Assembly: GCA_029858565.1 (NCBI GenBank)
Contig: JAOUEV010000002.1
Span: forward strand, 64,001 to 128,000
Reading direction: 5' to 3'
Length of the DNA stretch: 64,000 bases
DNA from: Nitrospirota bacterium
GTDB lineage: Bacteria; Nitrospirota; UBA9217
Shown: one piece after another, positions 7,741-62,916 of the stretch
Layout: every line of letters starts with the position of its first letter
How positions within the stretch are numbered: position 1 is the first letter of the stretch
Made by a program: the position numbers and the translations under genes
The notes under the pieces: generated by a model
The model's input: only the letters and a program-made list of their open reading frames with translations
The model's database searches: none
Told to the model about the DNA's origin: nothing

Positions 7741-7770
7741 CGATTGCAGATTGCGGGATAACGGCCGACT

Positions 7771-8265: not shown

Positions 8266-8431
8266 AAACAAGGGGTTCCGCTATTACGTAAGCGAGGACA
8301 TGCTTGAGCGGTATCAGAAAAAGCCCGTTTCCTTGCGTTTGCAGTGGCTCTATATGGCAAATGTGCTCCGTAAGGGGCTGAGCAAGCGGACTATTGCGAT
8401 GCAGGACCGGTTCCGGGAAGGTAAAGGCTGA
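8252..8431 (+). CDS. 59-aa basic protein overlapping the nucleotidyltransferase end (not in ORF track); possible antitoxin/partner
   Basis: Manual translation: MGKSKNKGFRYYVSEDMLERYQKKPVSLRLQWLYMANVLRKGLSKRTIAMQDRFREGKG*. 14-nt overlap with the upstream gene. Confidence 0.65.
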   Translation: MGKSKNKGFRYYVSEDMLERYQKKPVSLRLQWLYMANVLRKGLSKRTIAMQDRFREGKG

Positions 8432-8559
8432 ATCGCCGCTGTAACAAGTGCCCTTTGATCCGACGGGTCTTGAAAAACGATGGCGATAAACTGGCAGGCA
8501 GCATCACGGTCATTACCAAGGAAAAGATCAGACTCATTCCCCTGCAAGAAGTGCGATAA
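8431..8559 (+). pseudogene. Possible C-terminal remnant of a DUF5615 PIN-like protein
   Basis: Frame reads NKCPLIRRVLKNDGDKLAGSITVITKEKIRLIPLQEVR*, resembling from memory DUF5615 C-termini. No N-terminal half. Confidence 0.3.
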
Positions 8560-8620
8560 CGAACAAACGCCGCAGCTGATTGAGGCGAAGAAGTAAGTAT
8601 TTGCCGATGAGGTAATGGTA

Positions 8621-9433: not shown

Positions 9434-9450
9434 CAGCGAACGAGAGGACC

Positions 9451-36131: not shown

Positions 36132-36515
36132 TGGACGGGTAACGAAAACCGGCATCTCATGCGACCGGACCTTTAAGCGTTCCTGCTAACAGAAGCATAA
36201 TAGAGGCGAATGGAAAAGGCAAGTCCTGAATGCGCAATTGTCGATCGCCTGAAAAAACCACGGCGGGGCCTTGTCCGGACGGGATCCCGATGCCCCCTGC
36301 AAAACATTCATGTATTGCGGAAACGGAGGTGAAACCGCGCGGGAGAGGGGGTGTCCCGGATCTATGAAAATTGATCACAAGGCTTTTATTTTGCTGTATA
36401 ATGACCGGCGAGGACGTGAACGAGAAGACCATCGGACCGGGCCACGCGCAGGAGGCTTGGGCGGGAACGAATCTGAAGGCGCTTTGCCGCGGCGGTGAAA
36501 GGACGTGCGAAGGAC

Positions 36516-46710: not shown

Positions 46711-47937
46711 ATGTTGTTCAATATCCTTAAACGCTCATTCCTGAACCAGAAGCGCGCGATGGCGGTCATGATCGTGTCCGTGGCCGTCGGGACCGCTATA
46801 GCAGCGTCCCTGCTCGCGCTATCCTTCGATATTTCATCAAAGGTCTCCAGGGAACTTCGTTCCTTTGGCGCGAATATCGTGGTCCAGCCCCGGATAACAG
46901 GATTGGCAGGCGTGAGCGGACAGAAACGCTATCTGCGCGAGGCCGACATTCCCAAGGCAAAGACCATCTTCTGGAGGCACAACATCCTCGGTGTTGCACC
47001 ACTGCTCGTTGTGCGTGATGAAAAGCAGAACGCCCAGGTGCTCGGGACCTGGTACCTCAGGACGATCGCCTTGCCGGGAGAAAAAAAAGGATTCGATACC
47101 GGCGCTTCTACGGTCATGCCATGGTGGTCTATAGAGGGGAAATGGCCAGCGGGGGACAGCGAAATCCTGGCGGGCATCGGCATTGCAGAAAAGAAGAACC
47201 TTAAGATCGGGGACCGCGTTGCCGTAGGAGGAAGGCAACTCAGGATATCGGGCGTCCTGAACGCCGGCGGGAGAGAAGATGACATGTTCGTCGGCGAGCT
47301 CGCGACGGTACAGCTCTTATACGGCCTCCCCGGCAGGATATCCCAGGTCGCGGTGAGCGCGCTGACCACGCCCATGGACGATTTTGCCTATAAGGACCCG
47401 GCGACCATGTCCCGGAAGGAATATGAGAAGTGGTACTGCACGGGGTATGTCACCTCGATCGCAAAGCAGCTCGAAGAGGTCTTCGCAGGCTCGGTTGCCC
47501 GTCCCATCTGGCCGGTCGCCGAGGCAGAGGGAAATGTGTTAAGCCGACTTGAGCTCCTGATCATACTGCTGACCGCAGTGTCGCTCCTTGCCGCAGCCCT
47601 GGGTATATCCACGACCATGATCATGAGCCTGCTTAAGCGGACCGAGGAGGTCGCGCTCATGAAAGGGCTCGGGGCGAACACGCTGCAGACGGTTACCGTG
47701 TTCCTTTCCGAGGCGCTCCTCATCGGCCTGGCCGGCGGCGCGGTCGGTTATCTTCTTTCCCTGGGCATATCAAGCTATCTCGGATATCAGGTCTTCGGCA
47801 CGGCGCTGGAGCAGAAGGGGATGCTTCTGCCGATCAGCATCGGCGTATCCGAGGTGATCTCGGTGCTCGGGGCCTACCTCCCGATCAGGCGTGCGCTTCG
47901 GATAAAACCAGCAATTGTGCTGAAGGGAGGCCAATAG
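46711..47937 (+). CDS. MacB/FtsX-type ABC permease (Fet-like)
   Basis: ELRSFGANI, EKWYCTGYVTSIA, R.EEVALMKGLGA, FLSEA, PAIVLKG. Confidence 0.88.
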   Translation: MLFNILKRSFLNQKRAMAVMIVSVAVGTAIAASLLALSFDISSKVSRELRSFGANIVVQPRITGLAGVSGQKRYLREADIPKAKTIFWRHNILGVAPLLVVRDEKQNAQVLGTWYLRTIALPGEKKGFDTGASTVMPWWSIEGKWPAGDSEILAGIGIAEKKNLKIGDRVAVGGRQLRISGVLNAGGREDDMFVGELATVQLLYGLPGRISQVAVSALTTPMDDFAYKDPATMSRKEYEKWYCTGYVTSIAKQLEEVFAGSVARPIWPVAEAEGNVLSRLELLIILLTAVSLLAAALGISTTMIMSLLKRTEEVALMKGLGANTLQTVTVFLSEALLIGLAGGAVGYLLSLGISSYLGYQVFGTALEQKGMLLPISIGVSEVISVLGAYLPIRRALRIKPAIVLKGGQ

Positions 47938-47974
47938 TCGATCTGCGGAAGCTTTACGCAAGATACTCTTCCTT

Positions 47975-49054
47975 ATGAATGCCTGGTTCAGATATTTCCT
48001 GACACGATCGATCTCTCAGCGGAGGGGGCGGTTCATACTGTCGTCATCGGCCGTGCTGCTGTCCGTCATGGTGGTGACCGCGCTGGTCACGGTCTCGCTG
48101 GGAGTGCGCGAAAAGATCGGCGCGGAGCTGAAGCGCTACGGCGCCAACATGATAGTGACACACGGGGAAGGACAGTTGATCCCGGGAGCTGTCGCACAGG
48201 AGGTTCGTGGTCTTTCTCCGGCGATCAAGGACGCAGCATCGCAGCTCTACGGCAGCGCAATGCTCCGGCAAACGGCCGTGGAGATCGTTGGGATCGAACC
48301 AGGGAAAATGGCCGGCTACCGGGTAGCTGGCTCCTTGCCGGCCGGCCCCTCCGAACTGATGGTCGGTGTCAATCTGCGCGAGGCCATCAAGGTCAAACAA
48401 GGAGGCACGATAGCATTTGACGGTCATTCCGGGGAGTTCACCATTTCGGCTTTTTTTGAAAAAGGGCCTGACGACGATTCCACGATCGTGCTGACCCTCG
48501 CAGGAGCGCAGAAACTGCTTGCCATGGATGGCGTGAGCGCTGTGCTCCTGAACGCGGATTCCGCCCGGCTGCTGGAGGTTGAGCGCCGGGTGCGTGAACG
48601 CTGGCCTTTTCTCGAGGTGAAGACCCTGAAACAGGTTGCTGTTGCCGAGGAGCGGATACTGGGCAGGATCCAGCTGCTCATGCTGCTGGTGACGGTGGTG
48701 GTGCTCTTTTCCTCCATGGTCGCCTTGGGAAGCACAATGGGCGCCAACGTGATTGAACGCATGGAGGAGATCGGATTGATGAAGGCCATCGGTGCGACCC
48801 GGGGCGACATCCGCAGTTTTTTCATGGCTGAGGCGGCCCTGGCCGGGCTCACTGGTTCGCTTGCGGGATACGGAGGCGGCGTTCTGGCTGCCGAGGCTGT
48901 TTCTCGCACAGCTTTCGGTTCCTTCGTTCCCTTGAACGTTCTTGTCATTCCCGGTGCGCTGGTCCTGGGGATGGTCATTGCCATAGCCGCAACCTATATC
49001 CCGGTACGAGGCGCCATGAAGGTAGTGCCAGCCAGGATACTGCGCGGCGAATAG
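47975..49054 (+). CDS. MacB/FtsX-type ABC permease
   Basis: ELKRYGANM, ERMEEIGLMKAIGA, PARILRGE. Confidence 0.88.
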   Translation: MNAWFRYFLTRSISQRRGRFILSSSAVLLSVMVVTALVTVSLGVREKIGAELKRYGANMIVTHGEGQLIPGAVAQEVRGLSPAIKDAASQLYGSAMLRQTAVEIVGIEPGKMAGYRVAGSLPAGPSELMVGVNLREAIKVKQGGTIAFDGHSGEFTISAFFEKGPDDDSTIVLTLAGAQKLLAMDGVSAVLLNADSARLLEVERRVRERWPFLEVKTLKQVAVAEERILGRIQLLMLLVTVVVLFSSMVALGSTMGANVIERMEEIGLMKAIGATRGDIRSFFMAEAALAGLTGSLAGYGGGVLAAEAVSRTAFGSFVPLNVLVIPGALVLGMVIAIAATYIPVRGAMKVVPARILRGE

Positions 49055-49191
49055 AGTGAAAGGTGAAGCTCCTTTCGCGGAATTAGGATTGCTGCGGGAT
49101 TTCGAGAGGATTATCCATGTTTCCCGCTCTTTTGTCAGTATTGAACAACCACCCCTGTTAACGGGCCGGAATCTTGTTGAGGATCGATACA

Positions 49192-49860
49192 ATGTCTTTT
49201 ATAACCATTGAGAAGGTGAGCAAGGAATACGCAACGACCCGCGCGCTGAATGGCGTGGATTGCACGATCGGATCGGGCGAGTGGGTCAACATCATGGGGC
49301 CGTCGGGGTCGGGAAAAAGCACGCTTCTGAACATCCTCGGGGGACTCGACAGGCCCACCGAGGGCATTGTTACCATCAACAGCACGGACATCAACAGACT
49401 GTCGGAGGATGAACTTGCACGCTTTCGGCGGGAGACGATCGGTTTCGTGTTCCAGCAATCGCACCTGATACCTTACCTCGATGCCACCGAGAACGTGATG
49501 CTTGCCCAGTATTTCCACAGCATCCCAGACCGCGGGGAGGCAGAAGAGGCGCTGAAGCGCGTTGGACTGGGCCACCGCCTCCGGCATCGGCCGGCCGAGC
49601 TCTCGGGCGGCGAGCAGCAGCGCGTCGGGATCGCCCGCGCGCTGATCAACAATCCCAACCTGCTGCTCGCTGACGAACCGACCGGCAACCTTGACCGTTC
49701 CAATACCAGGAACATCCTCGAACTGCTCAAAGAGCTTCACGCCCAGGAAAAGTTCACCGTCGTAGTAGTGACCCACGACCCCTTTGTGTCCCAATGGGCC
49801 CGTCGGGTGATCTCCATGGAGGACGGAAGGATCATCAGGGATGAGCCGGTTCGTTCTTGA
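49192..49860 (+). CDS. ABC transporter ATP-binding protein (LolD/MacB type)
   Basis: [30 protein letters not shown]. Confidence 0.93.
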
Positions 49861-51229
49861 AGCGCTGTTCATTGGAGCGAAAGAAGGCGTCAAGCTTTCT
49901 TTTTGCACTCTGCTGGTATTCTCGCTTCTGAGCGGTCGCGAGCGTCTTCCCCTGAAACGGTCCGTGATTGCCGGACTCCTTGTCGTGTTCCTTGCCTCTT
50001 TTCTCCTGCTTACCCTGCCGGTCACGTTCGAAATGCGCGAAATTATCGTTCGGATGATAGGGTATGTCTTTGGAATTTTCTTTTTTCTTTCCATTGGCGC
50101 GCTCTTTCACGAGTCAGGGACCGATATCATCGGCCCTTTCCGCAGCGTTGGCGGGAAAAGGGTGCTCCAGATCCCTATCCTGCTGGTCTTAACCATTGGT
50201 TATTTTGCGCCTGACATGGCCGGCTCTGCGCTGTTCATTGCAGACCTTGCATCCATGGCACAGGCGCCTATGCCGGTCTTTCTTGCTTCCGGGCTCGGGT
50301 TTGTCCTGTTCATTGCCGGGACCGCTGCCCTTGGCAGGAAGGTACAGCCTGTGTTCCCGCGTCTTTTTGGTTTGCCCCAGGTGCTGCTGACCCTGGCACT
50401 CATCAAACTGCTTGCCGGCGGGATACGGGGATTTGCCGAACTTACTCTCATCCCGGCGGTGCAGGCTGGTCTCATGAAACTGGTCCACGATGTCATTCAC
50501 CAGACCTTTGTCATGATCCTTGTGCCTGACCACCCCGTGCTTTCGACGACAACATGGAACTTTGTGGGTTTCTTGTTTCGGGAGACCGCGGGGCTTTGGT
50601 TGTCTCTGATCCTGCTGGTAACGCCGCTCGTCCTGTTCGTGATCAAACATTTCCGGGAGCCCCTTCGGTATCCCGGGAGCATTGATCGTCCGTCTCAAAG
50701 ACGCATGTTCATCAGGTCTATTCGCGATCAGCGGCTTCTCAAATCGCTTCCCGTGCTTTTCTTTTTAGCGGTAATCATCATGACCTGGTTCTCCCAGCAG
50801 GACGCGCCCGGTGTAAGCCTGTATCTACCGGACCCTAAACCTGTCGCTGCGGACGGAGATGCATTGAATATTCCCATCCAATCGCCGACAGAAGACCTTC
50901 GCGACGGCGCTATTCATAAATTTTCGCTCCTGATTCGTGACGAACAGGTCAGGTTACTGATCATGAAAAAGCCTGACGGGACGCTCACGGCATGCCTCGA
51001 TGCATGCGAAATATGCCCGCCCGATGGTTATGGCCAATCACGAGAACATGTTGTCTGCCTTTACTGTAAAACCCCCATCCCCTTTGATACGGTCGGGAAG
51101 CCCGGTGGATGCAATCCAATCCCCCTGCCAACTGTTGTGACGGACAAGGAAGTGCGGCTGACAATGAAGGATATCTCCGAAAAATGGGTCCTGGTGAAGT
51201 CCGGGGCATCCAAGACTACTGTAAAATGA
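49841..51229 (+). CDS. Polytopic membrane protein: FTR1-like N-terminus plus DUF2318 Cys-rich domain
   Basis: About 8 TM segments; KEGVK at the RExxE position; DACEIC...VCLYC...GGCNPIP. Confidence 0.8.
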   Translation: MSRFVLEALFIGAKEGVKLSFCTLLVFSLLSGRERLPLKRSVIAGLLVVFLASFLLLTLPVTFEMREIIVRMIGYVFGIFFFLSIGALFHESGTDIIGPFRSVGGKRVLQIPILLVLTIGYFAPDMAGSALFIADLASMAQAPMPVFLASGLGFVLFIAGTAALGRKVQPVFPRLFGLPQVLLTLALIKLLAGGIRGFAELTLIPAVQAGLMKLVHDVIHQTFVMILVPDHPVLSTTTWNFVGFLFRETAGLWLSLILLVTPLVLFVIKHFREPLRYPGSIDRPSQRRMFIRSIRDQRLLKSLPVLFFLAVIIMTWFSQQDAPGVSLYLPDPKPVAADGDALNIPIQSPTEDLRDGAIHKFSLLIRDEQVRLLIMKKPDGTLTACLDACEICPPDGYGQSREHVVCLYCKTPIPFDTVGKPGGCNPIPLPTVVTDKEVRLTMKDISEKWVLVKSGASKTTVK

Positions 51230-52224
51230 AATCGATTGCCGCCCGAATATATGCATTTCTGCGCTCTGCTGCTCTCACGGTCTGGCTTGTGGGATTGTTC
51301 CTGTTCTATTATCTCTCGATGGCCGTGTGGAGCAATGAAGCTTTTGGTATGTACATTGTCCATCTTTCTTCGAATAACCTGTTTCGTGGGTTTTATCTTT
51401 TATTCCTCTCCAATGTGGTTCTTCGTCTCATAGAGAGACTGCAACGCCTTTGGTCAACAAGGGCGCAATTCATTCTCCAATTGCCCTTGTTGGTGGGGCT
51501 TTTGCTGTTCCTGCCGGCCTTGTTCCTGAGCTTGAACATGAGAAAGACACTGCGAACTCCACCGGTTGGCATGGGAGACATCATCACTGTTCCCCACGGC
51601 ACGGAGAAGTATCAGATCCAGTCTGTTGAGCCTGCGCTCAAGAAACGCTCTCTCAGGAATGAAGGGGCCGCGGTCTTTGATTACGAACCGGGGCTCATGC
51701 TCCTGGATCCTCAGGGAAGAACGTACCGGGTCGGCGCTTTTCCTCCCAGTCCTGTCGGCTCAACCTATATGCATGTGCTGACATTCGGGATCGGCCCTGG
51801 TGTGGAACTTAAAAAGGGGAGAGAAGTGGTATTTCGCGGATATATAGCGTTGCAGTTGACGCCATTTGGAAATGTCGACGTTTTTGACAATTCTGATTTG
51901 CCCTATAAGTTCTATTTGAGCATAATTCCCAATAGTACAATAAGAAAAGGAAAGGAATCCGCGAATACGTATGACCTTGAGAAACCGCGGTATAATGTCA
52001 CTGTCGTAAAGGAAGAACAGACCATTTTAAACGGGGAAACAGATTCTTCGATCAGAATTGATGAAAACCTCACTCTTTCGTTCTTTACGCCATCGGACTG
52101 GGTCATAGTTGAAGTTGTTCAAGATAGGTTTTTGCCATGGTTTGTTCTTTCGATATGCTTAATCTGCGTGGGAATTGTGCCCTTCCTCTTCTCAATGGTG
52201 ATGTCTAAACTAAGGGCGAAGTGA
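51226..52224 (+). CDS. ResB/CcsB-like cytochrome c biogenesis membrane protein (divergent)
   Basis: Three N-terminal TM segments (FLRS..L, LFLSN), large soluble domain, C-terminal V.QD...TM; ATGA-coupled to the DUF2318 gene. Confidence 0.55.
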   Translation: MKSIAARIYAFLRSAALTVWLVGLFLFYYLSMAVWSNEAFGMYIVHLSSNNLFRGFYLLFLSNVVLRLIERLQRLWSTRAQFILQLPLLVGLLLFLPALFLSLNMRKTLRTPPVGMGDIITVPHGTEKYQIQSVEPALKKRSLRNEGAAVFDYEPGLMLLDPQGRTYRVGAFPPSPVGSTYMHVLTFGIGPGVELKKGREVVFRGYIALQLTPFGNVDVFDNSDLPYKFYLSIIPNSTIRKGKESANTYDLEKPRYNVTVVKEEQTILNGETDSSIRIDENLTLSFFTPSDWVIVEVVQDRFLPWFVLSICLICVGIVPFLFSMVMSKLRAK

Positions 52225-52469
52225 ACGGCTTTTTATTTCGTTTGAAATGCGCAATAGTTGTCGTACATAAGTCCCTATCGGACGGCAGATTAGGATGAAC
52301 TTGGCTAGTTATTGTTGAGGAACAAAATTATTAGGTGTTTTTTTTATTAAATTTCATGGCATTATAAAAAAATTGCTTTGAGCATTATAAGTCTAGCATG
52401 TTTGAAAACCAACAAGGCTTTTGAGCGATAACACTCAAAATAAGTCATTGGTGTCTTGTAATATAAAGC

Positions 52470-52516
52470 TAATATATTGATATTTAAAGAATGCCTATGC
52501 TGGTATATGAATTGCA
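52470..52516 (+). promoter_or_regulatory. Sigma54 promoter with IHF site upstream of the cytochrome cluster
   Basis: TGGTATATGAATTGCA (52501-52516, GG-N10-GC). Minus-strand TATCAATATATTA (52470-52482) matches WATCAANNNNTTR. Lies in a very AT-rich ~365-bp spacer. Confidence 0.7.
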
Positions 52517-52590
52517 AAGTATATTAATTGAAAAAGTAATGTATATAAGCTTGGAAATCTATTAAACATATTGATTTTTAAGGAGAAGCG

Positions 52591-53391
52591 ATGGCCACTT
52601 GCAATAGATTCACGAAAACCAATCCCTTTATCTCATTGCTTGCGCTTGGCTTGGTTTGTGTATGTTTTGCTGCTCCGGTTGATGCGCTGACAATCGTCGG
52701 TAGCAAGCATGATTTTACATCGACTGCCTCGGGCACGAACAATTTCGCGGATAATTTCTTTGTGCCGGATCCGGCAACGGGATTCCCAACGCCGATCGAT
52801 CAGGTCTGCGTTTTCTGTCATACGCCTCACCATGCAGCGCTCGGCGCAGCCGCCCCTCTGTGGAACAGGACCTCGTCGCCTCCTGATGCGACGTATACAT
52901 TCAAAATGTATACAAGCGAGTCCTTCACGTATGGTCCTGTTGGCGGTCCCACGGGCATCAGCGCCTTGTGCATGAGCTGCCATGATGGTGTATCGTCTAT
53001 CGCGGTGAGCACGCTTCTGAACCCCCCGGGAGACGCGACGCCCGATCAGGTCACTACATCGATGTCCTCCAATGGTGCAATAGGTGCGGTGTATAATGGT
53101 GATCCTCTTACGAATGGATGGGGCGCGAACCTTGGTAATATTGACCCCTTGTTCCCGGGAACCAAGATCATAGACCTGAGCAACGATCATCCGATTTCAT
53201 TCGTCTATCCGACCAGTGCTTCGGGCATCTATCCTTCTACTTCGATAGATACTCGTCTCCGTCTCTTTGGTGCTAGCAAGGACATGGTCGAGTGTGCGAC
53301 CTGTCATTTGGTGCACGACAACCAGTACGAGCCTTTCCTGGCAATGCCGAACAACGGCAGCCAGATGTGTCTATCCTGTCATCAAAAATAG
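52591..53391 (+). CDS. OmcE-like tetraheme c-type cytochrome
   Basis: Signal peptide; SKHDF, QVCVFCHTPH, PLWNR, LCMSCHDG, DLSNDHPI, VECATCHLVHDN, PFL, GSQMCLSCHQK. Four CxxCH motifs. Confidence 0.85.
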   Translation: MATCNRFTKTNPFISLLALGLVCVCFAAPVDALTIVGSKHDFTSTASGTNNFADNFFVPDPATGFPTPIDQVCVFCHTPHHAALGAAAPLWNRTSSPPDATYTFKMYTSESFTYGPVGGPTGISALCMSCHDGVSSIAVSTLLNPPGDATPDQVTTSMSSNGAIGAVYNGDPLTNGWGANLGNIDPLFPGTKIIDLSNDHPISFVYPTSASGIYPSTSIDTRLRLFGASKDMVECATCHLVHDNQYEPFLAMPNNGSQMCLSCHQK

Positions 53392-53472
53392 ATCCGGAAC
53401 TGCAGCCATCTGTAGTCGGAAATATTTATGAAGAATTATTTAAGAAGAGTGAACGCGGCCTCGGAGGTGGGT

Positions 53473-56214
53473 ATGAAAACGGTGAAGATTTCGATCATTC
53501 TGATGATTGCCATCGTGGCAGTGGCCAGTGCTGCCTTCGCGGCCCCGGTCCGGATCGGGACCCTGGAGCAGAATATCTCGGACCCTGTGCGGGTGGCTTT
53601 GGATGCTCAGGGGAATATATATGTGACCGAGGCACAGCGCGACCTCGTCCTGGTTTATACCAGTAAAGGTCAGCATAAGACTGGCCTTTCGGTTCCTCGA
53701 CCGCTCGGTGTTGCGGTTGACGGGAACGGAACGATTTATGTAAGTTCTGGAAATCAGAGGACCAAAAACCCGGTGTATGTATTCACCCCGGACTTTGTGA
53801 AAGCCGGATGCCTGGGTGGGGCATCATGCGCGGAATTTGTAAAGCCCATCGATGTGGCTGTTGATGGAAAAGGCAATGTGTATGTCGTAGACAATGACCC
53901 TGATTATAGTGTGGTCAAGGTGTATGACGGTGCAGGCTCACTTATCCGTACGATTGCCGGCAGTGGCGCATCGCGGTTGAATAAACCCATGAGTGTTGCC
54001 ATCGACGATACAGCCGGGGAAATCATAATTTCCGATCAGCCGGATGTGATTGTTGCTGGTCAAAAGGCGATTGGCGCACGGATCCAGGCTTTTGATGGAT
54101 CTGGAATTGCTGTGCGGACGATTGGTCAGTATGGGATCGAGGTCGGTCAGTTCAAAGAAGCTACAGATATTGCCATTGATGCCAAGGGGCAGCTGTATGT
54201 TACTGACGGCGCTTTGGGTGTCACTAATATTATCAATGCCTCCGACGGGAACATCGTCGGTATTCTTTATGACGCCGGCAAGCCTGGTTATAACCCTAAC
54301 GGTGTTGTGGTAAGCAAAAATGGACTTGCGTATGTGGTCATGCAAAAAGGCGAAGGCAGCAAGGGCAGGATTGACATTTACGCTCTTGAAGGATATGTGA
54401 CGATGGCGGCTGCGCCTGCAGCGCTGATGTTCGAGGCTCGGCAGTTCTCGGGCAATCCTTCCGCTCAGACGGTATCGGTAAGCAACAGCGGCAGCGGCAC
54501 TCTCAACTGGACGGCATCGAAGAGCCAGTCGTGGATCGTGCTGGGGCAGGATGCAGGTACGGCGGGACCGAATGGATCTTCCGGTCTTCCCGTTGGTATA
54601 GACATCTCCGCGTTGAAGGCGGGAATTTATACAGGCACTGTTGCGGTCGTATCGGATTTCGGCCAGACGGAGTCAGTCGGTGTTTCTGTGAATGTGCTGA
54701 ATCCGCTGATCCTGAATATCAGCAAGAGCACGATGACATTTACTGCTAAGAAGGGCAAAACAGCGGCTGCCCAGTCTCTTGCAACAGGGATCGACAACGT
54801 CACCACGGCAACGGCGTGGAGCGCGAAGTCCGATTCAACGTGGCTTTCTGTAACACCGGCATCGGGAACTGCGACTGCCGCGTCTGCGGTTGCTGGTGCA
54901 AACGTAACGATCAACACCGCTGGCATGGGTGTTGGAACCTATAAGGGTGCTATCACGGTATCTGCCCCCGGAGCTATCGGAGATGGCAGTGCTGTTATGG
55001 TTATGCTTACGATAACCCCGACCACGAAGATCACCGTAAATACGAACAATGAAAATGCCAAGTTCTCGGTAAGCGGCCCGTCGACATACAATGGTAGCGG
55101 CTCATCATGGAGTGTGGAAGATGTTCCTGCGGGCGATTATAAGGTCAACTTTGAGCCTGTTGCCGGCTATCGCAAACCGAAGGCAGCGATGGGGGCTGTC
55201 CCGGCGGATGGCGAGGTTTCCTTCTCGGGAAATTATACGTCCTTCGCTGATATTGCTGCGCGGCGGAATATCCTTGTGGCCGGTGCTCTTGGCGTAAAAG
55301 CGCGTGATTCTGAGGTCAGTGTGTATAGCAATACGGGTGCTCTTTCGCAGGCAATTGATCTGTCAGCGAATTACGGTGCCAGCGTGGCGGTCGCCGATGT
55401 TGACAATGACGGCGCAGAAGAGATTATTGTTAGTGCCGCAGAAAAGGGGAGCAATCCCGCGACGGTTACGGTTATGAAAGCTGACAGGACCGTACTGAAC
55501 AGCTTCGTTCCTTTTGCGAATGCCAATGCTGTTCGGGTCGCGGCAGGAGACATGGATGGAAATGGGTCTGCGGAAATTGTCGTCATCCCAGCGCCTACCA
55601 GAAACGGCGCTGCCGGGACCGCAGCAGTGTATACCTACGACAGTGCGAGCGCGAAGATGATCGAAGTCGCGGCAGTGACCATGTATAAGAAGACGTCAAT
55701 AGTTGACGTTGCTGTCGCGGATATTAATGGTGATGGAAAAGCGGAACTTTTAACACTAGCCGCGTTTGAAGGAAAATCAGCAGGAATGGTAAAAGCCTGG
55801 AGCGTGAGCGCTGCAAAGGGTGGTTGGTCAGCAGCCTTGATCAACGATATCACCATGAACGGTGAAATGATGGGCGCTGCAGTGGCCGGTGGCGATGTCG
55901 ATGGAGACGGTGTAAGTGAGATTATTGTCGGTTCCGCGGCAGATGCGGGTGGTATGCTGACCATCATTAAAGGCGACGGAACTCAGACGAAGGTGAAGGT
56001 CTTTGGCAGGAAGGATGTGGCTGGTATGACGCTGGCCGTTGCTGACCTCGATGGCGACGGTAAGGCTGATCTCGTTGCGGCGCCTGTGCTTGAGAGTGGG
56101 AATGCGAAGAAGGATGGTGCGATCGAGGTCCTGAATTCGAATGGCACCTTGATGTTCTCGATCGATGTCAAGGCGGATGGTGCGAATGTTGCCATCGGTG
56201 AACTTGGTCTCTAA
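53473..56214 (+). CDS. Exported NHL-repeat/BACON/FG-GAP protein
   Basis: Signal peptide; NHL repeats (P..VAVD..G.IYV); two BACON-like units (NWTASKSQSW, AWSAKSDSTW); five DxDxDG repeats. Confidence 0.85.
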   Translation: MKTVKISIILMIAIVAVASAAFAAPVRIGTLEQNISDPVRVALDAQGNIYVTEAQRDLVLVYTSKGQHKTGLSVPRPLGVAVDGNGTIYVSSGNQRTKNPVYVFTPDFVKAGCLGGASCAEFVKPIDVAVDGKGNVYVVDNDPDYSVVKVYDGAGSLIRTIAGSGASRLNKPMSVAIDDTAGEIIISDQPDVIVAGQKAIGARIQAFDGSGIAVRTIGQYGIEVGQFKEATDIAIDAKGQLYVTDGALGVTNIINASDGNIVGILYDAGKPGYNPNGVVVSKNGLAYVVMQKGEGSKGRIDIYALEGYVTMAAAPAALMFEARQFSGNPSAQTVSVSNSGSGTLNWTASKSQSWIVLGQDAGTAGPNGSSGLPVGIDISALKAGIYTGTVAVVSDFGQTESVGVSVNVLNPLILNISKSTMTFTAKKGKTAAAQSLATGIDNVTTATAWSAKSDSTWLSVTPASGTATAASAVAGANVTINTAGMGVGTYKGAITVSAPGAIGDGSAVMVMLTITPTTKITVNTNNENAKFSVSGPSTYNGSGSSWSVEDVPAGDYKVNFEPVAGYRKPKAAMGAVPADGEVSFSGNYTSFADIAARRNILVAGALGVKARDSEVSVYSNTGALSQAIDLSANYGASVAVADVDNDGAEEIIVSAAEKGSNPATVTVMKADRTVLNSFVPFANANAVRVAAGDMDGNGSAEIVVIPAPTRNGAAGTAAVYTYDSASAKMIEVAAVTMYKKTSIVDVAVADINGDGKAELLTLAAFEGKSAGMVKAWSVSAAKGGWSAALINDITMNGEMMGAAVAGGDVDGDGVSEIIVGSAADAGGMLTIIKGDGTQTKVKVFGRKDVAGMTLAVADLDGDGKADLVAAPVLESGNAKKDGAIEVLNSNGTLMFSIDVKADGANVAIGELGL

Positions 56215-56292
56215 TTCATGATCGTGACCAGCATGAACATGAATGGAATTAAAAGATTGATACGGCGTACTCTGCAAGAAGGAGCGGTGACT

Positions 56293-59200
56293 ATGAAGAA
56301 ATCTACTCTACTTACGATTTCAATTCTGATTATGCTGTTCGGCATGCTGATTGCCGTGCGGGACGTCGCGGCACTCGATGCCCCGCATAACGCGAACGAC
56401 GTATCTCGGTCGATCACCTGCTCCACGTGCCACGTTTCTCCATTGGGACCGACCCCGACGTGGAAAACAATCCCGACGACCACGGACAATACCTATACAA
56501 ACAATCTTTGTACAAGCTGTCACGCGAGCGGCAAGCTCACGACCAGCAAGTATGAGGATATTAAGACCCACTCTGCGGCGAACACGGGAAGCACCCGGTG
56601 GGGCGGTGGCTGGACGGTTGAGTGTCGTGTCTGCCATCATGCCCATAACCAGGCGCAGCAGACCACGTTCTATTCAGATGCTAATAATAATGTGCTGACC
56701 GGTACGGTGGCGGCGCTGACGTCGTCGGTATCTGCGACCATGTCCACGCTTACTGCGTCCGCGGGGTCGATGGGAACCGATGGTTACGTTGGTTACCTTC
56801 TTATCCCGAATACCGCATATCCTACGATCATGTATCGTGTTATAGCCAATGACGCGACGAAGTTTACCGTGAAAGGTGCTATTAACCTGGCTCGTACGGC
56901 AGTGGGAAAGACCTGGGCACTGCGCTACGGCAAAATGGTGAAAACGCAAATTGCCTATACGAACCCGACTTCGGTGAATGCCTCGGTCAAGTTCTACAAT
57001 AATGCAGGCAACAATTCCTTTGCAGAAACCGCGAGCCCATCAACATCCCTTTGCATGGTCTGTCATACCCAGACCAAGCATTTCAAGAATGACGGAACAT
57101 TTGAGACTGCAGGTCATCCGGCAGCTGTCGGAACGGCCTGCACTTCCTGCCATAAACATAATACGGGCTTCAAGGCAAGCGGATGTAATGGCTGTCACGG
57201 CCAGAGCGGATCGACCGGCGCGCCTCTTGTTGCCGGTGATCTTGTCTCGCCAGCAACCGGCCACGCCGAAGGCGCACATCTGCGGCATGCGGTGACCCTG
57301 TCTCTGAGTTGTGCTGTCTGTCACGCTGGAAATACCATGCCTGCGCTCGACAGCGAGATAACCATGTCGTTCAGCGACGCGGCAGCAGGTGGAGCATATC
57401 AGGGCACTGCTCTCAACGCTCCTTACACCTATAGCGCCAATGTCACCCTGGGCGGCACGCAAACCTGTTCCTCTTTATATTGCCATAGCTCGGGTCAGAG
57501 TGCCACGGGTGGTTCGCTTGCCGGCGGAGACTACAAGTCAGTGAACTGGACAGGAGCCGGCCTGAACTGCGGCAGCTGCCACGTTGATATGGATGCAAGC
57601 GCATCGGCAACTGGCAGCCATATTAAGCACGCACAGGATAAGGCCATTGCTTGTGCGACCTGCCATGATGGATACACAGAAACGTCAACGGCCGCGGCAA
57701 CGCACGCAAATGCCTCGATCAATCTGAGCTTCAGCGGTAGGGCTGCTGGCTCGACATACTCCCAGGGAAACTCCCATGCTGTGCAGAACGGATACGGCCA
57801 GTGTTCAACGAACGATTGCCATAGCACCGGCCAGGGTTCCGATGGCAGTTCGTCCGGCATTACCTATGCGTCTCCGACGTGGGGCGGAACGGTGAATTGC
57901 AGCTCCTGCCACAAGAACATGGATGCTGATGCGACCGCACCGGGCAGCCATGTGAAGCACGCGCAGAGCGCGGCGATTGCCTGCGCCACCTGTCACAACG
58001 GATACACCGAGACCACCGCAGCCGTGGCAACCCATGACGACGGCACGGTGGACATGAGCTTCAGCGGTCCGGGAGACGGCACGTTCTACACCGGCGGTAC
58101 GACGAGCGGCAACTACGCGCTCGGCGGCGGTTACGGTTCTTGCTACACCAGCTCCTGCCACAGCTCGGGCCAGTCCGCCACGGGTACGGCCTCGCCGCTG
58201 ACCTATGGTTCACCGGTATGGGGCGGTACCTTGGACTGCGGTTCCTGCCACACGAACATGGATACTGATGCGACCGCACCGGGCAGCCACGTGAAGCATG
58301 CCCAGAGCGCGGCCATCGCTTGCGCCTCCTGTCACAGCGGTTACACTGAGACCACGGTTGCGGTTGCAACGCATAATAACTCGACAGTCAACGTGACGAT
58401 GGCGACCGGCTTCTACACCGGCGGCACAACGAGCGGCAACAACGCGCTCGGCGGCGGCTATGGTTCCTGCTACACCAGCTCCTGCCACAGCTCGGGCCAG
58501 TCAGCCACGGGTACGGCCTCGCCGCTGACCTATGGTTCTCCGGCATGGGGAGGTACACTGGACTGCGGCTCCTGCCATAAGAACATGGATACTGATGCGA
58601 CCGCACCGGGCAGCCACGTGAAGCATACCCAGAGCGCGGCCATCGCTTGCGCAACCTGTCACAACGGTTACACCGAGACCTCGGTTGCCGCGGCATCGCA
58701 TAACAACGGCACGGTGGATATGAGCTTCAGCGGGACGGGTGCCGGGACGTTCTACAGCGGCGGCACAGTGAGCGGCGACAACGCGCTCGGCGGCGGCTAC
58801 GGTTCCTGCTACACCAGCTCCTGCCACAGCTCAGGCCAGTCAGCGACGGGTACGGCATCACCGTTGACCTACGGCTCTCCTGCGTGGGGCGGAGCGCTGG
58901 ATTGCGGCTCCTGCCACAAGAACATGGATACGGATGGAACTGCGCCGGGAAGCCACGTTGGCCATGCACAGACAGCGGCGATTGCGTGCGCAACCTGCCA
59001 CAGCGGGTACACCGAGACGACGGTTGCGGCTGCAACGCATAATAACTCGACAGTCAACGTGACGATGTCGACCGGCTTCTACAGCGGCGGCACGGTTTCG
59101 GGTGACAATGCGCTGGGCGGCGGTTATGGAACCTGTTTCACAACGAACTGCCATGGCTCATCCTCACCCGTCTGGGGCACGAACACCACGAATGCTTCCT

Positions 59201-60174
59201 GTACGAAGTGCCATGGTGTTTCCGGCGCAACCCCTGCGCAGTATACCGCGGATAACAATATAGCGGCGCCTGGATATGTTTCTGTCGCTCCGGTCGGTAC
59301 CGGTCGCGCAACATCTGGTGCGACAGCTGCGACAGATCCGAAGGTCGGAGCTCATAACGCACACCTTAAGGGCGTGAGCAACTATTCGGATCCCATTGCC
59401 TGCAGCGCCTGCCACAATACGTCATCAGGGCACATGGATGGTTCCGGCACACTGACATTCAGCGGTTTGTCTACATCGAACGGCGCCGCTGCAAATTATA
59501 GCGCGCCGAATTGTTCAACAACCTACTGTCATTTCGGTAAATCGATCAATTTGTACTCGCCGGCAGTTTCGAGCGCTACAGTGACCTGGAATGATACGGC
59601 TTACCTGAGCGGCACACCGAGCATCGGCGGAGACTGCGCGAAGTGCCATCTCTCACCGCCTTCGGCAACAGGGACCCATGCAGGCTACAGCACCTTCACA
59701 GACTGCAACACCTGTCATCCTCATGTGAGCACAGACGGTACGTTCAACAACAAATCGCTGCATATCAACGGCGTAGTCGAAGCCGCAAGCGGTTGCGACG
59801 GCTGCCACGCATATCCGCCTGCAATAGGCGACGGCAAGGCGTATAAGGGTTCCGCGCTGCTCGGTAAAGGAGCGCATACATCCCATGTCAACTATCTCCT
59901 CCTGAGGACCGGATTGACCCTTAGCGCTAAGGGTGATACTTATACCGGTGCAACGGTTGCGGCGATCTGCGGCGTTTGTCACAACACGTCAGCCGATGCC
60001 TTCCATAAGAATGGCAATGATGTCCGTGACCTCCTGATCCCATCGTCTTACCTCTTTGGTACGGGGACGCCGACATATAACGGGAATCCCGCGACTACGA
60101 CCAATAAGAACTGCTCGAATGTCAGCTGCCATTTCAATGTAACTCCGCTGTGGCAGCAGACCGCGGGTCAGTAA
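56293..60174 (+). CDS. Giant multiheme c-type cytochrome with CxxxxCH/CxxCH repeats
   Basis: Signal peptide; manual count of 23 CxxCH plus 8 CX4CH; GAAGGAG RBS. Confidence 0.92.
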   Translation: MKKSTLLTISILIMLFGMLIAVRDVAALDAPHNANDVSRSITCSTCHVSPLGPTPTWKTIPTTTDNTYTNNLCTSCHASGKLTTSKYEDIKTHSAANTGSTRWGGGWTVECRVCHHAHNQAQQTTFYSDANNNVLTGTVAALTSSVSATMSTLTASAGSMGTDGYVGYLLIPNTAYPTIMYRVIANDATKFTVKGAINLARTAVGKTWALRYGKMVKTQIAYTNPTSVNASVKFYNNAGNNSFAETASPSTSLCMVCHTQTKHFKNDGTFETAGHPAAVGTACTSCHKHNTGFKASGCNGCHGQSGSTGAPLVAGDLVSPATGHAEGAHLRHAVTLSLSCAVCHAGNTMPALDSEITMSFSDAAAGGAYQGTALNAPYTYSANVTLGGTQTCSSLYCHSSGQSATGGSLAGGDYKSVNWTGAGLNCGSCHVDMDASASATGSHIKHAQDKAIACATCHDGYTETSTAAATHANASINLSFSGRAAGSTYSQGNSHAVQNGYGQCSTNDCHSTGQGSDGSSSGITYASPTWGGTVNCSSCHKNMDADATAPGSHVKHAQSAAIACATCHNGYTETTAAVATHDDGTVDMSFSGPGDGTFYTGGTTSGNYALGGGYGSCYTSSCHSSGQSATGTASPLTYGSPVWGGTLDCGSCHTNMDTDATAPGSHVKHAQSAAIACASCHSGYTETTVAVATHNNSTVNVTMATGFYTGGTTSGNNALGGGYGSCYTSSCHSSGQSATGTASPLTYGSPAWGGTLDCGSCHKNMDTDATAPGSHVKHTQSAAIACATCHNGYTETSVAAASHNNGTVDMSFSGTGAGTFYSGGTVSGDNALGGGYGSCYTSSCHSSGQSATGTASPLTYGSPAWGGALDCGSCHKNMDTDGTAPGSHVGHAQTAAIACATCHSGYTETTVAAATHNNSTVNVTMSTGFYSGGTVSGDNALGGGYGTCFTTNCHGSSSPVWGTNTTNASCTKCHGVSGATPAQYTADNNIAAPGYVSVAPVGTGRATSGATAATDPKVGAHNAHLKGVSNYSDPIACSACHNTSSGHMDGSGTLTFSGLSTSNGAAANYSAPNCSTTYCHFGKSINLYSPAVSSATVTWNDTAYLSGTPSIGGDCAKCHLSPPSATGTHAGYSTFTDCNTCHPHVSTDGTFNNKSLHINGVVEAASGCDGCHAYPPAIGDGKAYKGSALLGKGAHTSHVNYLLLRTGLTLSAKGDTYTGATVAAICGVCHNTSADAFHKNGNDVRDLLIPSSYLFGTGTPTYNGNPATTTNKNCSNVSCHFNVTPLWQQTAGQ
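57568..59154 (+). repeat. Intragenic tandem repeats of 327-339 bp, each a three-heme module
   Basis: Units start at 57568, 57898, 58237, 58564 and 58903 (spacings 330, 339, 327, 339 bp); the later units are highly similar at DNA level. Confidence 0.9.
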
Positions 60175-60183
60175 GGGAGGGTG

Positions 60184-60212
60184 TGGACGTGTATACCGTA
60201 CTGAGGTATAAT
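60184..60212 (+). promoter_or_regulatory. Possible internal sigma70 promoter for the second giant cytochrome
   Basis: TGGACG-N17-TATAAT. Confidence 0.4.
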
Positions 60213-60308
60213 AGCCAGCCTGCATGCAAGGCTGCAGTTCATAATCAGAAACGCTCAGCCGCATCCGTGGAATCGACCGGCAGAGCTCTTACAGAAGGCG
60301 AGGTACTT

Positions 60309-62852
60309 ATGATGAAGAAAGCTTGTAACGATAGCGCGGTAAGCCGGCTCACATGGCTGGGGCTTGCGGTAGTCCTGATCATGCTGATCTCCGCATTCGT
60401 TGCTGTACCTCAGGCAACAGCCGGAACGTATACGGTAGATACGTGCGGCGATTGCCACGCATACTCCACGGGAACGTTCACGGACGGTTCGGCCCGGAAT
60501 AATCCGGCCGGCGCCTTCCCGGGCTCGCATCAACAGCATGTGACGACCTACCAGATGGCCTGCACGGTCTGTCACATCAACAACGGAGCTAATTTTGCCC
60601 ATCGGAACGGCAATGTTGATATAAATGCCTCGATCAGCGGAGGCACATACAGCAAAGGTTCATTCTCCCAGGTTAATACGACATCTCTGGGTCGGTGCAC
60701 TAACGTCTCTTGCCATAGCAACGGAACCCCGCTGAACGGTACAGCAACATTCGCAACAGCGACCTGGGGTTCTCCGGCAACAGGTGCTTGCGGAACCTGC
60801 CACGGCGTCCTGGCTTCCAGCGCTCCGACCTCAACGCATCACAGCAAACACGTGGGAGCTGCTGCGGGATATCAAAACGCCTGCGGTTGGTGCCATAGCA
60901 GCACGGTGAACATGACAGCGAATTCAACCGTTCAGGCGACGGTCACTTCAACTACGCTGCATGTCAACGGAATCAAGAACGTCTCCTTTGAAACCACCAC
61001 GAACGCCGGGGCGAACGCCTACGGAAGCGGGCAGGCCTATAGCTGCACCAACCTCTACTGTCATAGCCAGGGGAACACGTTCACATCACCCTATACAGCG
61101 CCGAACACGACAGCGCTCTGGACATTGGCTGCAGGTTCGCTGAACTGCAACAGCTGCCATGGTTCGACCGTAGCAACAACCACTCGCGGTAATGGCAAGC
61201 CTGAGTACGCCAACGGCACGCCGAAGAAGAACAGCCATGCGGGCCATTTCCCGTGGAACACGCTCCAGTCCTGCCAGATCTGCCATTCGGCAACGACCAC
61301 GGACGGGGTGAGCGTTACGAACAAAGCGAACCATGTGAAGAAGTCCTACAACGTGGGTTCCTACACGGGAGGCGGTGCCTGGAACACCTTGGCAAACTTC
61401 ACCTATACCTATAATGCCAATGGCAGCACCTGTAATACCAACCAGTGCCATGCTGGGCTGAACGCACAGTGGGGCTCGACAGGAGCCGGCTCCGGCAGCG
61501 AATGGAACTGCATTACCTGCCACTCCAGCTCGTTCAAGAAGTTCCTCGGCACGGGAACGATCCGGCAGGTTGTCGGTACGACCAACGCCGCTGATTTCAA
61601 CATGTCAACGATCGGGAACGGCGCAGGTTCGCGTCACCTGTACGGTGCTTCGACAATCGTGAAATGGGACTGCATCATCTGTCACGAGGAAGGTCAGGCA
61701 ACGGGCGCTCCTGGAAGGGTTGACTGGCAGAACCATAATGACTTGGGCGGCTTGATCCATCTGCGGAACGTGGACACGATCGATCCTGCGAACTCGGGCT
61801 GGGCGATTAACAACAAGTCCTGGACGACGACCGATTATCAGAGTATGGACGAGTTCTGCGTCTCTTGCCATGATTCCAACGGGGCAAGCGCGATCGCGGT
61901 GAATGCTGCGAACAACGGACTCTTCACCGGCACTGCTGCCTGGAACACCTATCGTGCAGGCTGGAAATCAATGGCAGGAACTTTCCCCGGCAGGGCAGCC
62001 CTGGCACCGTTCAACTCCACGGACTGGCGTTCTGGTTATCTGGTTGCATCCACCTCGTCAGTAGGCGCCGGCGAGGGCAGAGCAAAGATCACTGACGTGA
62101 AGACCCAATTCTACGCAGGTACTGCAGGCAACTGGGCGACAACGAACTACAACGGCAATCCGTCGCAGCACGCGGTGCTCGGTACCCGGTACGGCCGGGC
62201 CTGGAACACCTGGACCGCCGCAGCCTGGTCGAGCTACTTCATGAAGAAGTCTCGTGCGAACATCAACGCCATGCGTGAGACCGCGCTACTCTCATGCGCT
62301 GACTGTCACGTGCTCGATGCTCCAGGTGTGGGCGGCAATGCTCATAGCGGTACAGTGAAATACATGCTGTCTACAGTCACTAGTGATGGCATCTGCACAA
62401 AGTGTCATTCGACAACTGCCTACGCTGCGGCGAGCGCTATATCCCGGTGGAATCACAGCTACTCAAGAGGCGGTTACAATGCCTATGGTCTTTCCAACGC
62501 AGCAGGTACGGGTTCTCAGCTCGCCTGTATGATGTGCCATGCTGGCTGGCAGATAGAGTCAACGGTCTCGAGACAGAGGAGCTACGGCGGCATCCATGGA
62601 TCCTGGACGACCTTCTATCCCATGAGCACGGTAGGAAGTGGAAACCTGACGACCTACCGGTTCTTCCCCGGGACCTGGAGAAAGCATTCATATAGTGCTG
62701 ATAACCAGTGGGGCTCCATGACAGCTTCGACCTGTTACTTCGGGGCTACAACCGATAATAGCGGATTTGCGAGCTGTACGTCACATGGAAGCGCGACCGG
62801 CAGAACTGGAACGACGTACACGCCGACGTACACGCGTCCGGTCAAGTACTAA
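60309..62852 (+). CDS. Multiheme c-type cytochrome with CxxxxCH/CxxCH repeats
   Basis: Signal peptide ending PQATA; manual count of 12 CxxCH plus 3 CX4CH; GAGGT RBS. Confidence 0.92.
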   Translation: MMKKACNDSAVSRLTWLGLAVVLIMLISAFVAVPQATAGTYTVDTCGDCHAYSTGTFTDGSARNNPAGAFPGSHQQHVTTYQMACTVCHINNGANFAHRNGNVDINASISGGTYSKGSFSQVNTTSLGRCTNVSCHSNGTPLNGTATFATATWGSPATGACGTCHGVLASSAPTSTHHSKHVGAAAGYQNACGWCHSSTVNMTANSTVQATVTSTTLHVNGIKNVSFETTTNAGANAYGSGQAYSCTNLYCHSQGNTFTSPYTAPNTTALWTLAAGSLNCNSCHGSTVATTTRGNGKPEYANGTPKKNSHAGHFPWNTLQSCQICHSATTTDGVSVTNKANHVKKSYNVGSYTGGGAWNTLANFTYTYNANGSTCNTNQCHAGLNAQWGSTGAGSGSEWNCITCHSSSFKKFLGTGTIRQVVGTTNAADFNMSTIGNGAGSRHLYGASTIVKWDCIICHEEGQATGAPGRVDWQNHNDLGGLIHLRNVDTIDPANSGWAINNKSWTTTDYQSMDEFCVSCHDSNGASAIAVNAANNGLFTGTAAWNTYRAGWKSMAGTFPGRAALAPFNSTDWRSGYLVASTSSVGAGEGRAKITDVKTQFYAGTAGNWATTNYNGNPSQHAVLGTRYGRAWNTWTAAAWSSYFMKKSRANINAMRETALLSCADCHVLDAPGVGGNAHSGTVKYMLSTVTSDGICTKCHSTTAYAAASAISRWNHSYSRGGYNAYGLSNAAGTGSQLACMMCHAGWQIESTVSRQRSYGGIHGSWTTFYPMSTVGSGNLTTYRFFPGTWRKHSYSADNQWGSMTASTCYFGATTDNSGFASCTSHGSATGRTGTTYTPTYTRPVKY

Positions 62853-62882
62853 CAGCTTCGAGGTCTTGAAGGCAACAAATGT

Positions 62883-62916
62883 AGCGGAGGCTCATATGAG
62901 CCTCCGCTTTTTTTTT
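62883..62916 (+). terminator. Rho-independent terminator ending the cytochrome operon
   Basis: Perfect palindrome AGCGGAGGCTCATATGAGCCTCCGCT followed by a T run. Confidence 0.9.

Follow-up and report, generated by a model that had tools for sequence, protein, structure and literature searches.

A putative electron-transfer operon combining an OmcE-type cytochrome, a double-propeller protein and giant multihaem cytochromes in a dsrAB-bearing Nitrospirota bacterium

We describe here a four-gene operon (genes A to D, 52591-62852, plus strand) in a 64-kb stretch of DNA, hereafter the window, which belongs to a contig of a 3.92-Mb Nitrospirota assembly (144 contigs, rated 100% complete). Judged from its sequence, A is a Sec-exported homologue of the nanowire subunit OmcE, with all haem-binding and ligating residues present; B is a haem-free protein with two propellers, and C and D are cytochromes with 31 and 15 haem motifs. 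The order of A, B and a giant cytochrome gene, together with a promoter element upstream, is conserved across several genera of one Nitrospirota family. With modest confidence, we favour the explanation that this operon is controlled by sigma-54 and builds an outer-surface electron-transfer assembly around the OmcE-type cytochrome, in which A would polymerise and a separate beta-barrel cluster would act in trans.

Structure of the operon and its products

As opened from their first starts, the four open reading frames (ORFs) span 52591-53391 (A), 53428-56214 (B), 56218-60174 (C) and 60150-62852 (D, from a GTG), corresponding to 266, 928, 1318 and 900 aa. The probable true starts of B, C and D follow Shine-Dalgarno-like runs at 53473, 56293 and 60309, leaving gaps of 81, 78 and 134 nt between the genes. 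The features of the locus are as follows (IHF, integration host factor; AF2, AlphaFold2).

52470..52482, minus strand: IHF-consensus-like site, exact WATCAANNNNTTR, about 20 nt upstream of the -24 element
52501..52516, plus strand: sigma-54-type -24/-12 element TGGTAT-N5-TTGCA, TGGTATATGAATTGCA, 75 nt upstream of the ATG of A
52591..53391, plus strand: A, OmcE-family tetrahaem c-type cytochrome precursor, 266 aa (four CxxCH; PDB matches)
53473..56214, plus strand: B, predicted secreted haem-free protein, 913 aa (Pfam, AF2 model, start behind GGAGGTG; ORF opens at 53428)
56293..60174, plus strand: C, 31-haem cytochrome (motif count, Pfam, module alignment; ORF opens at 56218)
57862..59046, plus strand: 339-bp tandem repeat in C, 3.5 copies with 82% matches (Tandem Repeats Finder), encoding trihaem modules
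60309..62852, plus strand: D, 15-haem cytochrome (motif count, Pfam; ORF opens with GTG at 60150)
62883..62916, plus strand: intrinsic terminator, an 11-bp stem (8 GC pairs, 62883-62908) followed by a T run

An earlier note on this DNA had described the first gene as OmcE-like, and our searches agree: the only PDB sequence matches of A are two OmcE filaments, 7tfs_A of Geobacter sulfurreducens (E 1.1e-22) and 9yuq_N of Desulfuromonas soudanensis, where OmcE forms bundles (E 3.5e-19), and a profile of 26 relatives matched the same structures at 6.9e-51 and 5.5e-41, respectively. The four CxxCH motifs of A lie at residues 73, 127, 235 and 260, and the four extra histidines are H40 (in KHD), H80 (in TPH), H200 (in DHP) and H242 (in VHD). 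All eight haem-ligand histidines (H40, H77, H80, H131, H200, H239, H242 and H264) are invariant in the 26 sequences, while a ninth, H81, is not conserved. According to the available text of PMC13712944, four CxxCH motifs and four extra histidines are what OmcE homologues keep. Compared with shorter family members, A and its close relatives have a longer segment from the second haem motif to the DHP histidine. Two cysteines, Cys 23 and Cys 25, lie within the hydrophobic run of the N-terminus behind a valine and are not conserved.

A quick maximum-likelihood tree was built from 89 relatives with four or five haems; in it, the operon-linked A orthologues formed two clades (support 100 and 99), which both fall, along with the OmcE clade of Geobacteraceae/Desulfuromonadales, in a weakly supported group (86). 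The genome's other tetrahaem paralogue was placed elsewhere in this tree. The closest non-self match to A among 5.8 billion proteins showed 68% identity. Within the genus, A and B orthologues share only 43-55% identity, and they therefore appear to be fast-evolving, surface-type genes.

Named relatives indicate that the host is an uncultured dsrAB-bearing Nitrospirota bacterium and not Geobacter, in line with the earlier suspicion that the lineage might be a different one. The named close homologues of A (51% identity) and B (46% identity) are from Nitrospirota. Taxonomic placement through the trp genes, which the earlier note had proposed, pointed the same way: three of the four organism-naming rows for TrpB (87-89% identity, among 120 matches listed) are Nitrospirota, the fourth being "Betaproteobacteria bacterium". 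In the same genome, dsrA scored above its curated cut-off and a dsrB-like gene adjoins it. A look through sequencing runs for this DNA listed no RNA run; it listed one DNA run from a sediment metagenome, which may be the source, and two runs containing small shares of it.

Signal peptides were judged by eye. Each of the N-termini of A to D begins with charged residues, continues with a hydrophobic stretch and reaches an AxA-like site (VDA/L, AFA/A, VAA/L and ATA/G, with the slash at the putative cleavage point), and none of them contains the lipobox pattern [LVI][ASTVI][GAS]C by this reading, in agreement with the cleavable signal peptides without an obvious lipobox that were previously proposed for all four proteins. 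The previously estimated numbers of haem motifs (~31, ~15 and about 50 in total) were matched exactly by our count of 4 + 0 + 31 + 15 = 50.

Co-transcription of A to D is well motivated by the sequence, because a promoter element lies upstream, a terminator lies downstream, and no convincing terminator was found in the gaps between the four genes. The earlier note had proposed a single unit running from a combined sigma-54 and IHF promoter to a strong terminator. The sigma-54-type element and the hairpin stood up to analysis, while the evidence for IHF is weak because IHF-type sites with at most one mismatch are not above chance in the window (23 against 26.4 expected). The sigma-54-type element TGGTATATGAATTGCA lies in a 366-nt AT-rich spacer upstream of A and is the sole match to TGGYAYN5TTGCW in the 64 kb, where 0.19 were expected and at least one match occurred in 18 of 100 shuffles. 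Near-identical elements (TGGTATGCGTATTGCA and the like) are located 72-118 nt upstream of the A orthologue in four of seven related genomes. The TGG and TTGC blocks, the GG-N10-GC spacing, an rpoN gene in the genome and the orthologous positions together identify TGGTATATGAATTGCA as a probable sigma-54 promoter. No gene for an enhancer-binding protein adjoins the operon; the nearest sigma-54 activator, a response regulator encoded 16 kb away on the minus strand (34776-36155), could be the activator of the operon. A signalling block at 12825-36155 also encodes a CHASE2 cyclase, two PAS-rich hybrid histidine kinases (1231 and 962 aa), an HD-domain response regulator, CheR, MCP and CheA. The G + C content is 0.47-0.52 at 50001-54000 (promoter, A and the start of B), compared with 0.55-0.63 in most of the window.

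Protein B is matched by Pfam NHL (2.7e-14), BACON_2 (1.9e-14) and FG-GAP (8.4e-20), and its 928-aa ORF contains no haem motif and only two cysteines. The database form (P0127) begins at 53473 and has 913 aa. The domains are arranged as an NHL six-blade propeller, two BACON-like immunoglobulin domains, a further beta-sandwich and an FG-GAP propeller. An AF2 model from 31 sequences (mean confidence, pLDDT, 87.3) is all-beta and shows the corresponding series of a propeller, three beta-sandwiches and a propeller; its N-terminal propeller superposes on NHL domains with a template-modelling (TM) score of 0.85 on the target and a root-mean-square deviation of 2.4 A. A fold search with the model returned generic propellers only, such as the NHL domains of TRIM proteins, and was functionally uninformative. 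In the set of 5.8 billion proteins, 30 other clusters cover at least 94% of B, and the sole organism-named one is from Nitrospirota. Complex prediction for the NHL domain of B with mature A gave a score of 0.01 against a mark of 0.32, a value that bears neither way on binding.

Protein C contains 23 CxxCH and 8 CxxxxCH motifs and is the largest multihaem protein of a genome with 40 ORFs of at least 4 CxxCH and 12 of at least 10. Its N-terminal 6-haem domain (residues 26-330) is the most conserved part (34-47% identity in relatives). In its middle, a degenerate module accompanies five near-identical ones of ~110 aa, which contain one CxxxxCH and two CxxCH each, and its C-terminal part is similar to domain II/IV of MtrC/MtrF. 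These repeats indicate that C grew through tandem duplication of a c7-like trihaem module. The Pfam family Cytochrome_C7 matched both C (1.5e-25, four stretches) and D (1e-17), as did PF09698, the Geobacter CxxxxCH...CxxCH motif family. The GSU1996 family comprises dodecahaem proteins, which are polymers of c7-type trihaem domains. No PDB sequence match was found for C at E <= 0.1, GSU1996-type structures included.

Protein D carries 12 CxxCH and 3 CxxxxCH motifs. Its N-terminal half resembles parts of C-type proteins, and its C-terminal 6-haem module of ~480 aa (61362-62852) ends in a conserved NYxRPVKY. This module recurs at the C-terminus of many giant multihaem proteins, the largest of which reach about 4500 aa, with 880 representatives at E <= 1e-3 and 200 at <= 1e-30. 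D likewise had no PDB sequence match at E <= 0.1, and the profile of its C-terminal module gave only marginal, haem-motif-driven matches in the PDB. AF2 modelling of the C-terminal part without haem (23 aligned sequences) was unusable (pLDDT 41), and a beta-barrel at the C-terminus of D is unsupported by this poor model. A relationship of D to the pentahaem polysulfide reductase MccSep, as described in the accessible part of PMC13510729, was considered and dropped, with no PDB match at E <= 0.1 in a structure set whose inclusion of MccSep is unconfirmed.

Conservation and the second OmcE-like cluster

Comparison of the genes across genomes, as the earlier note had suggested, covered 24 genomes of the same family and 16 of other Nitrospirota families. 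Full-length B was present in eight of the former and none of the latter, and in all eight B-bearing genomes (three of the same genus, with 43-47% identity, and G007, G009, G019, G023 and G024) the order of OmcE-like tetrahaem, B and giant multihaem gene is kept. A second, distantly D-like cytochrome gene comes next in G007, G009 and G024, three giant cytochrome genes are consecutive in G019, and the contig ends inside or just past the unit in three relatives. At loci with a complete ORF, C orthologues carry 15 to 41 haem motifs, and their varying trihaem modules offer a natural series on the tuning of haem-chain length.

Two variant arrangements were also observed. In Bacterium BMS3Bbin08 (L022, 2608-10774), the genes for a fused-propeller B homologue and a C-like cytochrome are oriented divergently to a 5-haem OmcE-like gene; five-haem OmcE-like proteins are proposed as a possible new nanowire family in the available text of PMC13712944. 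In G019, 5- and 12-haem proteins are encoded after a second B-like gene (L095, 6639-13780; 929 aa, 27% identity), and no OmcE-like gene was detected at this locus.

Two further OmcE-like genes were found in the genome, on contigs C131 and C106. The C131 cluster (L097, 9824-15213) encodes a 222-aa tetrahaem cytochrome, an NHL lipoprotein (with a ...LIGC lipobox), a SurA-like peptidyl-prolyl isomerase (PPIase) and a 635-aa protein. The tetrahaem cytochrome matches 7TFS as well as A does (E 1.7e-23). The 635-aa protein is without a Pfam family and, in the protein atlas, groups with PEP-CTERM-associated outer-membrane proteins (feature score 0.98, TM 0.75-0.78); barrels of the MtrB/PioB type are more distant (TM 0.54-0.56), and the MtrB/PioB porin family had no match in the genome. 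No barrel-type gene was found from 36 kb of the window to 18 kb past the operon. Both the operon's missing barrel and this separate barrel-bearing OmcE cluster had been overlooked in the earlier note.

A homologue of the 635-aa protein occurs in nine of the 24 same-family genomes, namely all eight with the operon and G011, and in none of the 16 genomes of other families. In G011, an assembly that is 85% complete, there is a fragment matching residues 672-927 of B. In G024, both loci are on a single contig, 12 kb from each other. As these genomes are kin, the co-occurrence of the operon and the barrel cluster is suggestive and does not constitute a test.

The genes on C106 (L096, 3846-7046) encode an NHL protein and then a 692-aa 10-haem protein with an OmcE-like N-terminus. 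The same kind of pair, an NHL propeller (~340-400 aa) with a 10-11-haem protein (~550-700 aa) bearing an OmcE-like N-terminus, is recurrent in many named loci (L006-L085) from Planctomycetota, Verrucomicrobiota, Pseudomonadota, Acidobacteriota and others, and looks like UetI/UetJ; in many loci the partner of the propeller is an 11-haem protein of ~550-600 aa. In more general terms, tetrahaem OmcE-like genes are widespread, with 1523 protein matches and at least 578 confirmed stretches in species-representative genomes. We surveyed the best 80 named loci for OmcE-like genes, which represent many phyla, and an NHL match was present in 69 of them. Among 138 OmcE-like ORFs, an NHL-only protein was encoded within 3 kb of 103, a fused protein of the B type near 10 and neither near 25, some of these at contig ends. 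The previously stated association of NHL-repeat genes with such cytochromes is borne out by these counts (69 of 80 loci; 113 of 138 ORFs). Proteins with 15 to 25 haems are encoded directly downstream of an OmcE-like gene in a few uncultured loci (L011, L024 and L010).

Concerning the flanking genes, the upstream region 46711-52224 encodes two FtsX/MacB-type permeases, an ORF at 49174-49860, an FtrD-like membrane iron-sulfur protein and a multi-pass membrane protein (P0124), a set that looks like one for iron uptake. Downstream, on the minus strand, there are two PMT (GT39-type) genes, two radical-SAM/B12 genes, an amine oxidase gene, two GDSL genes and a gene for a 757-aa TPR protein. The upstream genes had been regarded as candidate maturation or iron-supply components and a downstream glycosyltransferase gene as a further part, which our data do not support. 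In 11 related loci, compared over 2-7 kb past the operon, none of the window's flanking genes adjoins it, and because synteny is lacking, the iron-transport, FtrD-like and glycosyltransferase genes were rejected as parts of the system. Elsewhere in the window, a tryptophan operon is located at 1944-10263 (trpE, trpD, trpC, trpF, trpB and trpA by NCBIfam), with a 272-aa ORF without assignment (8615-9433) between trpB and trpA.

Proposed function and alternative explanations

From these observations we infer an extracellular location, polymerisation of A, the roles of B to D and the action of a barrel in trans. In the proposed mechanism, A would polymerise head to tail in the manner of OmcE, with a histidine of one subunit completing the haem of the next, to form an insulated haem wire. 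B may serve as a non-redox scaffold or assembly factor, taking the role of the separate NHL propellers found beside OmcE-like genes. C, and perhaps D, could act as long haem cables between the periplasm or outer membrane and the filament, a mineral or a partner surface. Passage through the outer membrane would be supplied in trans by the C131 cluster, which is found in every operon-bearing genome.

Several points weigh against this interpretation. The operon and the roughly 10 kb to each side of it contain no gene for a beta-barrel, a SurA-like isomerase or a lipoprotein, and a nearby barrel is a criterion for nanowire-competent OmcE homologues in the accessible part of PMC13712944. B is not a lipoprotein, as its signal peptide is without Cys or lipobox. 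BLAST revealed no similarity between C or D and the 8-10-haem cytochromes of the Geobacter-type loci L033, L047 and L020. OmcE-like tetrahaem genes are common, and for most of their products polymerisation has never been demonstrated. The tree of A comes from a quick search only, so the affinity it suggests is weakly supported. The co-occurrence with the barrel cluster was counted over related, non-independent genomes, and expression, localisation and polymerisation of A to D are all predictions from sequence.

The most likely rival, although we judge it unlikely, is a non-filamentous outer-surface cytochrome complex in which A would remain a monomer or oligomer and B would hold it, with C and D, on the cell surface, with no micrometre-long wire. 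The absence of a barrel from the operon itself is consistent with such a complex, as is the G019 locus where a second B-like gene precedes 5- and 12-haem proteins with no OmcE-like gene detected; moreover, the pairing of NHL and OmcE-like genes is far commoner than proven nanowires. For Desulfovibrio ferrophilus IS5, the available text proposes that complexes of outer-membrane cytochromes are stabilised by NHL propellers (Deng et al., Sci Adv 2018, PMC5815863), and in the Uet module, as far as its preprint was accessible, NHL propellers occur alongside a tetrahaem cytochrome, a PPIase and a barrel (bioRxiv 10.1101/2022.05.06.490989). However, A keeps the exact residue set of the two solved OmcE filaments and its similarity to them (E 1e-22) is on a par with that of the barrel-cluster paralogue (E 1.7e-23), and sequence does not distinguish a monomeric from a polymerising form.

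An arrangement confined to the periplasm appears very unlikely. In this case C and D would be soluble c7-type polymers like GSU1996, serving as a store or wire, with A as a periplasmic tetrahaem cytochrome and B as a chaperone. The matches of C and D to Cytochrome_C7 and the Geobacter CxxxxCH...CxxCH family are in keeping with it, and A to D have Sec-type signals only in an operon that encodes no secretion component. Against this, the relatives of A with solved structures are all extracellular filaments, the genomes with the operon also carry a barrel-bearing OmcE cluster, and C lacks a PDB match at E <= 0.1 even to GSU1996-type structures. In addition, combinations of BACON, FG-GAP and NHL domains are typical of surface or secreted proteins.

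A further alternative concerns the direction of electron flow. Electrons might flow inwards, with a mineral, an electrode, Fe(II), reduced sulfur or a syntrophic partner as their source, which we regard as possible but on the improbable side. Among the modules described outside Geobacter, the closest is Uet of the electroautotroph Ca. Tenderia electrophaga; the accessible part of its preprint links it to electron uptake, and the D. ferrophilus cytochromes are linked to uptake from solids in that of PMC5815863. The genome carries dsrAB, and sulfate or sulfite could therefore accept imported electrons. On the other hand, the sequences set no direction, bis-His haem chains being reversible, and Geobacter OmcE is associated with export; its physiological need is disputed, according to the available text of PMC13194489.

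The outer-surface assembly that we favour may be part of something larger, namely a two-locus nanowire system of one dsr-bearing Nitrospirota family, an extension that we put forward tentatively and with clearly less confidence than the assembly itself. The Uet/OmcE-type cluster would mount the filaments, and the operon would add a second OmcE-type subunit, a double-propeller adaptor and haem cables. The cables (31 and 15 haems, tens of nanometres) would plug the filament into the periplasm, or extend or decorate it. If true, the cytochrome wire would have large cytochromes dedicated to it as accessories, which would make it a type without a published precedent, and through it sulfate-reducing Nitrospirota could gain direct electrical contact with minerals or partner cells.

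The secretion, anchoring, start and end of cytochrome nanowires are an open question according to the accessible part of PMC13712944. The operon links an OmcE-type subunit to the conserved, well-foldable, non-haem protein B and to giant cytochromes, while barrel and isomerase genes lie apart, and B and the giant cytochromes are concrete candidates for adaptor, base or tip components. OmcE-type hardware is thereby extended to uncultured dsr-bearing Nitrospirota, which are common in sediments and aquifers, and direct electron exchange with iron minerals or partners would alter the view of their sulfur and iron cycling.

Comparison with known systems

In the Desulfuromonadia, the omcE cluster encodes OmcE together with two multihaem cytochromes, a pair of propeller lipoproteins and a large beta-barrel; 15-70 glycosylation genes often come next, in freshwater lineages as a block with GT2/4/39 and TPR genes, and Nitrospirota are among the five phyla with OmcE homologues (Petersen et al., mBio 2026, PMC13712944, available text). 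In our survey, the Geobacter-type loci L033, L047 and L020 encode a 9-10-haem cytochrome, an 8-haem cytochrome, an NHL propeller and OmcE, with a second propeller lipoprotein in L020. Similarly, the operon encodes a tetrahaem OmcE homologue with four CxxCH and four extra histidines, an adjoining NHL protein and two more multihaem cytochromes that may or may not correspond to those of the cluster, and the GT39-type (PMT) and TPR genes nearby may recall the freshwater Geobacter pattern.

Nevertheless, the differences from the omcE cluster are considerable. The OmcE homologue comes first in the operon, whereas OmcE follows two cytochromes and a propeller in L033, L047 and L020. Where the cluster has two propeller lipoproteins, the operon has a single fused NHL-BACON-FG-GAP protein that is not a lipoprotein, and the cytochromes are encoded downstream and carry 31 and 15 haems instead of about 8-10. 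In addition, the operon has no beta-barrel gene and has a putative sigma-54 promoter, and the glycosylation-type genes near it are on the other strand and not syntenic in relatives. The operon departs from the omcE cluster in three defining features (barrel, propeller lipoproteins and, it appears, cytochrome type). That the locus might prove to be an already characterised Geobacter cluster, which the earlier note had named as a possible refutation, is not the case, as the host is assigned to Nitrospirota and the locus differs from the published cluster. In the literature searched, we found no prior description of this operon or of a fused NHL-BACON-FG-GAP protein with an OmcE-like gene, although the supplements of PMC13712944 may list such loci.

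The other two systems were likened by description and not by sequence, from the accessible parts of their reports. The Uet module of Ca. Tenderia electrophaga and other Tenderiales consists of the tetrahaem UetA, the PPIase UetB, the beta-barrel UetC, the c7-type trihaem proteins UetD/E/G, the six- and seven-bladed propellers UetI and UetH and the undecahaem UetJ (bioRxiv 10.1101/2022.05.06.490989). Its parts list overlaps with that of the operon, and the C131 cluster and the C106 pair mirror it; the barrel-like protein of C131 also corresponds to a component of the Desulfuromonadia omcE cluster. Unlike in Uet, however, the trihaem units of the operon are fused in one giant protein and the two propellers in another, the PPIase and barrel are encoded elsewhere in the genome, and no cupredoxin was seen. 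In the sulfate reducer D. ferrophilus IS5, multihaem cytochromes are likewise encoded with NHL propellers, but neither an OmcE-type tetrahaem cytochrome nor a fused double propeller is described in the available text of PMC5815863. Taken together, the sequence comparisons indicate that A belongs to the OmcE family and that the operon is a variant, which as a unit is distinct from the Geobacter-type cluster.

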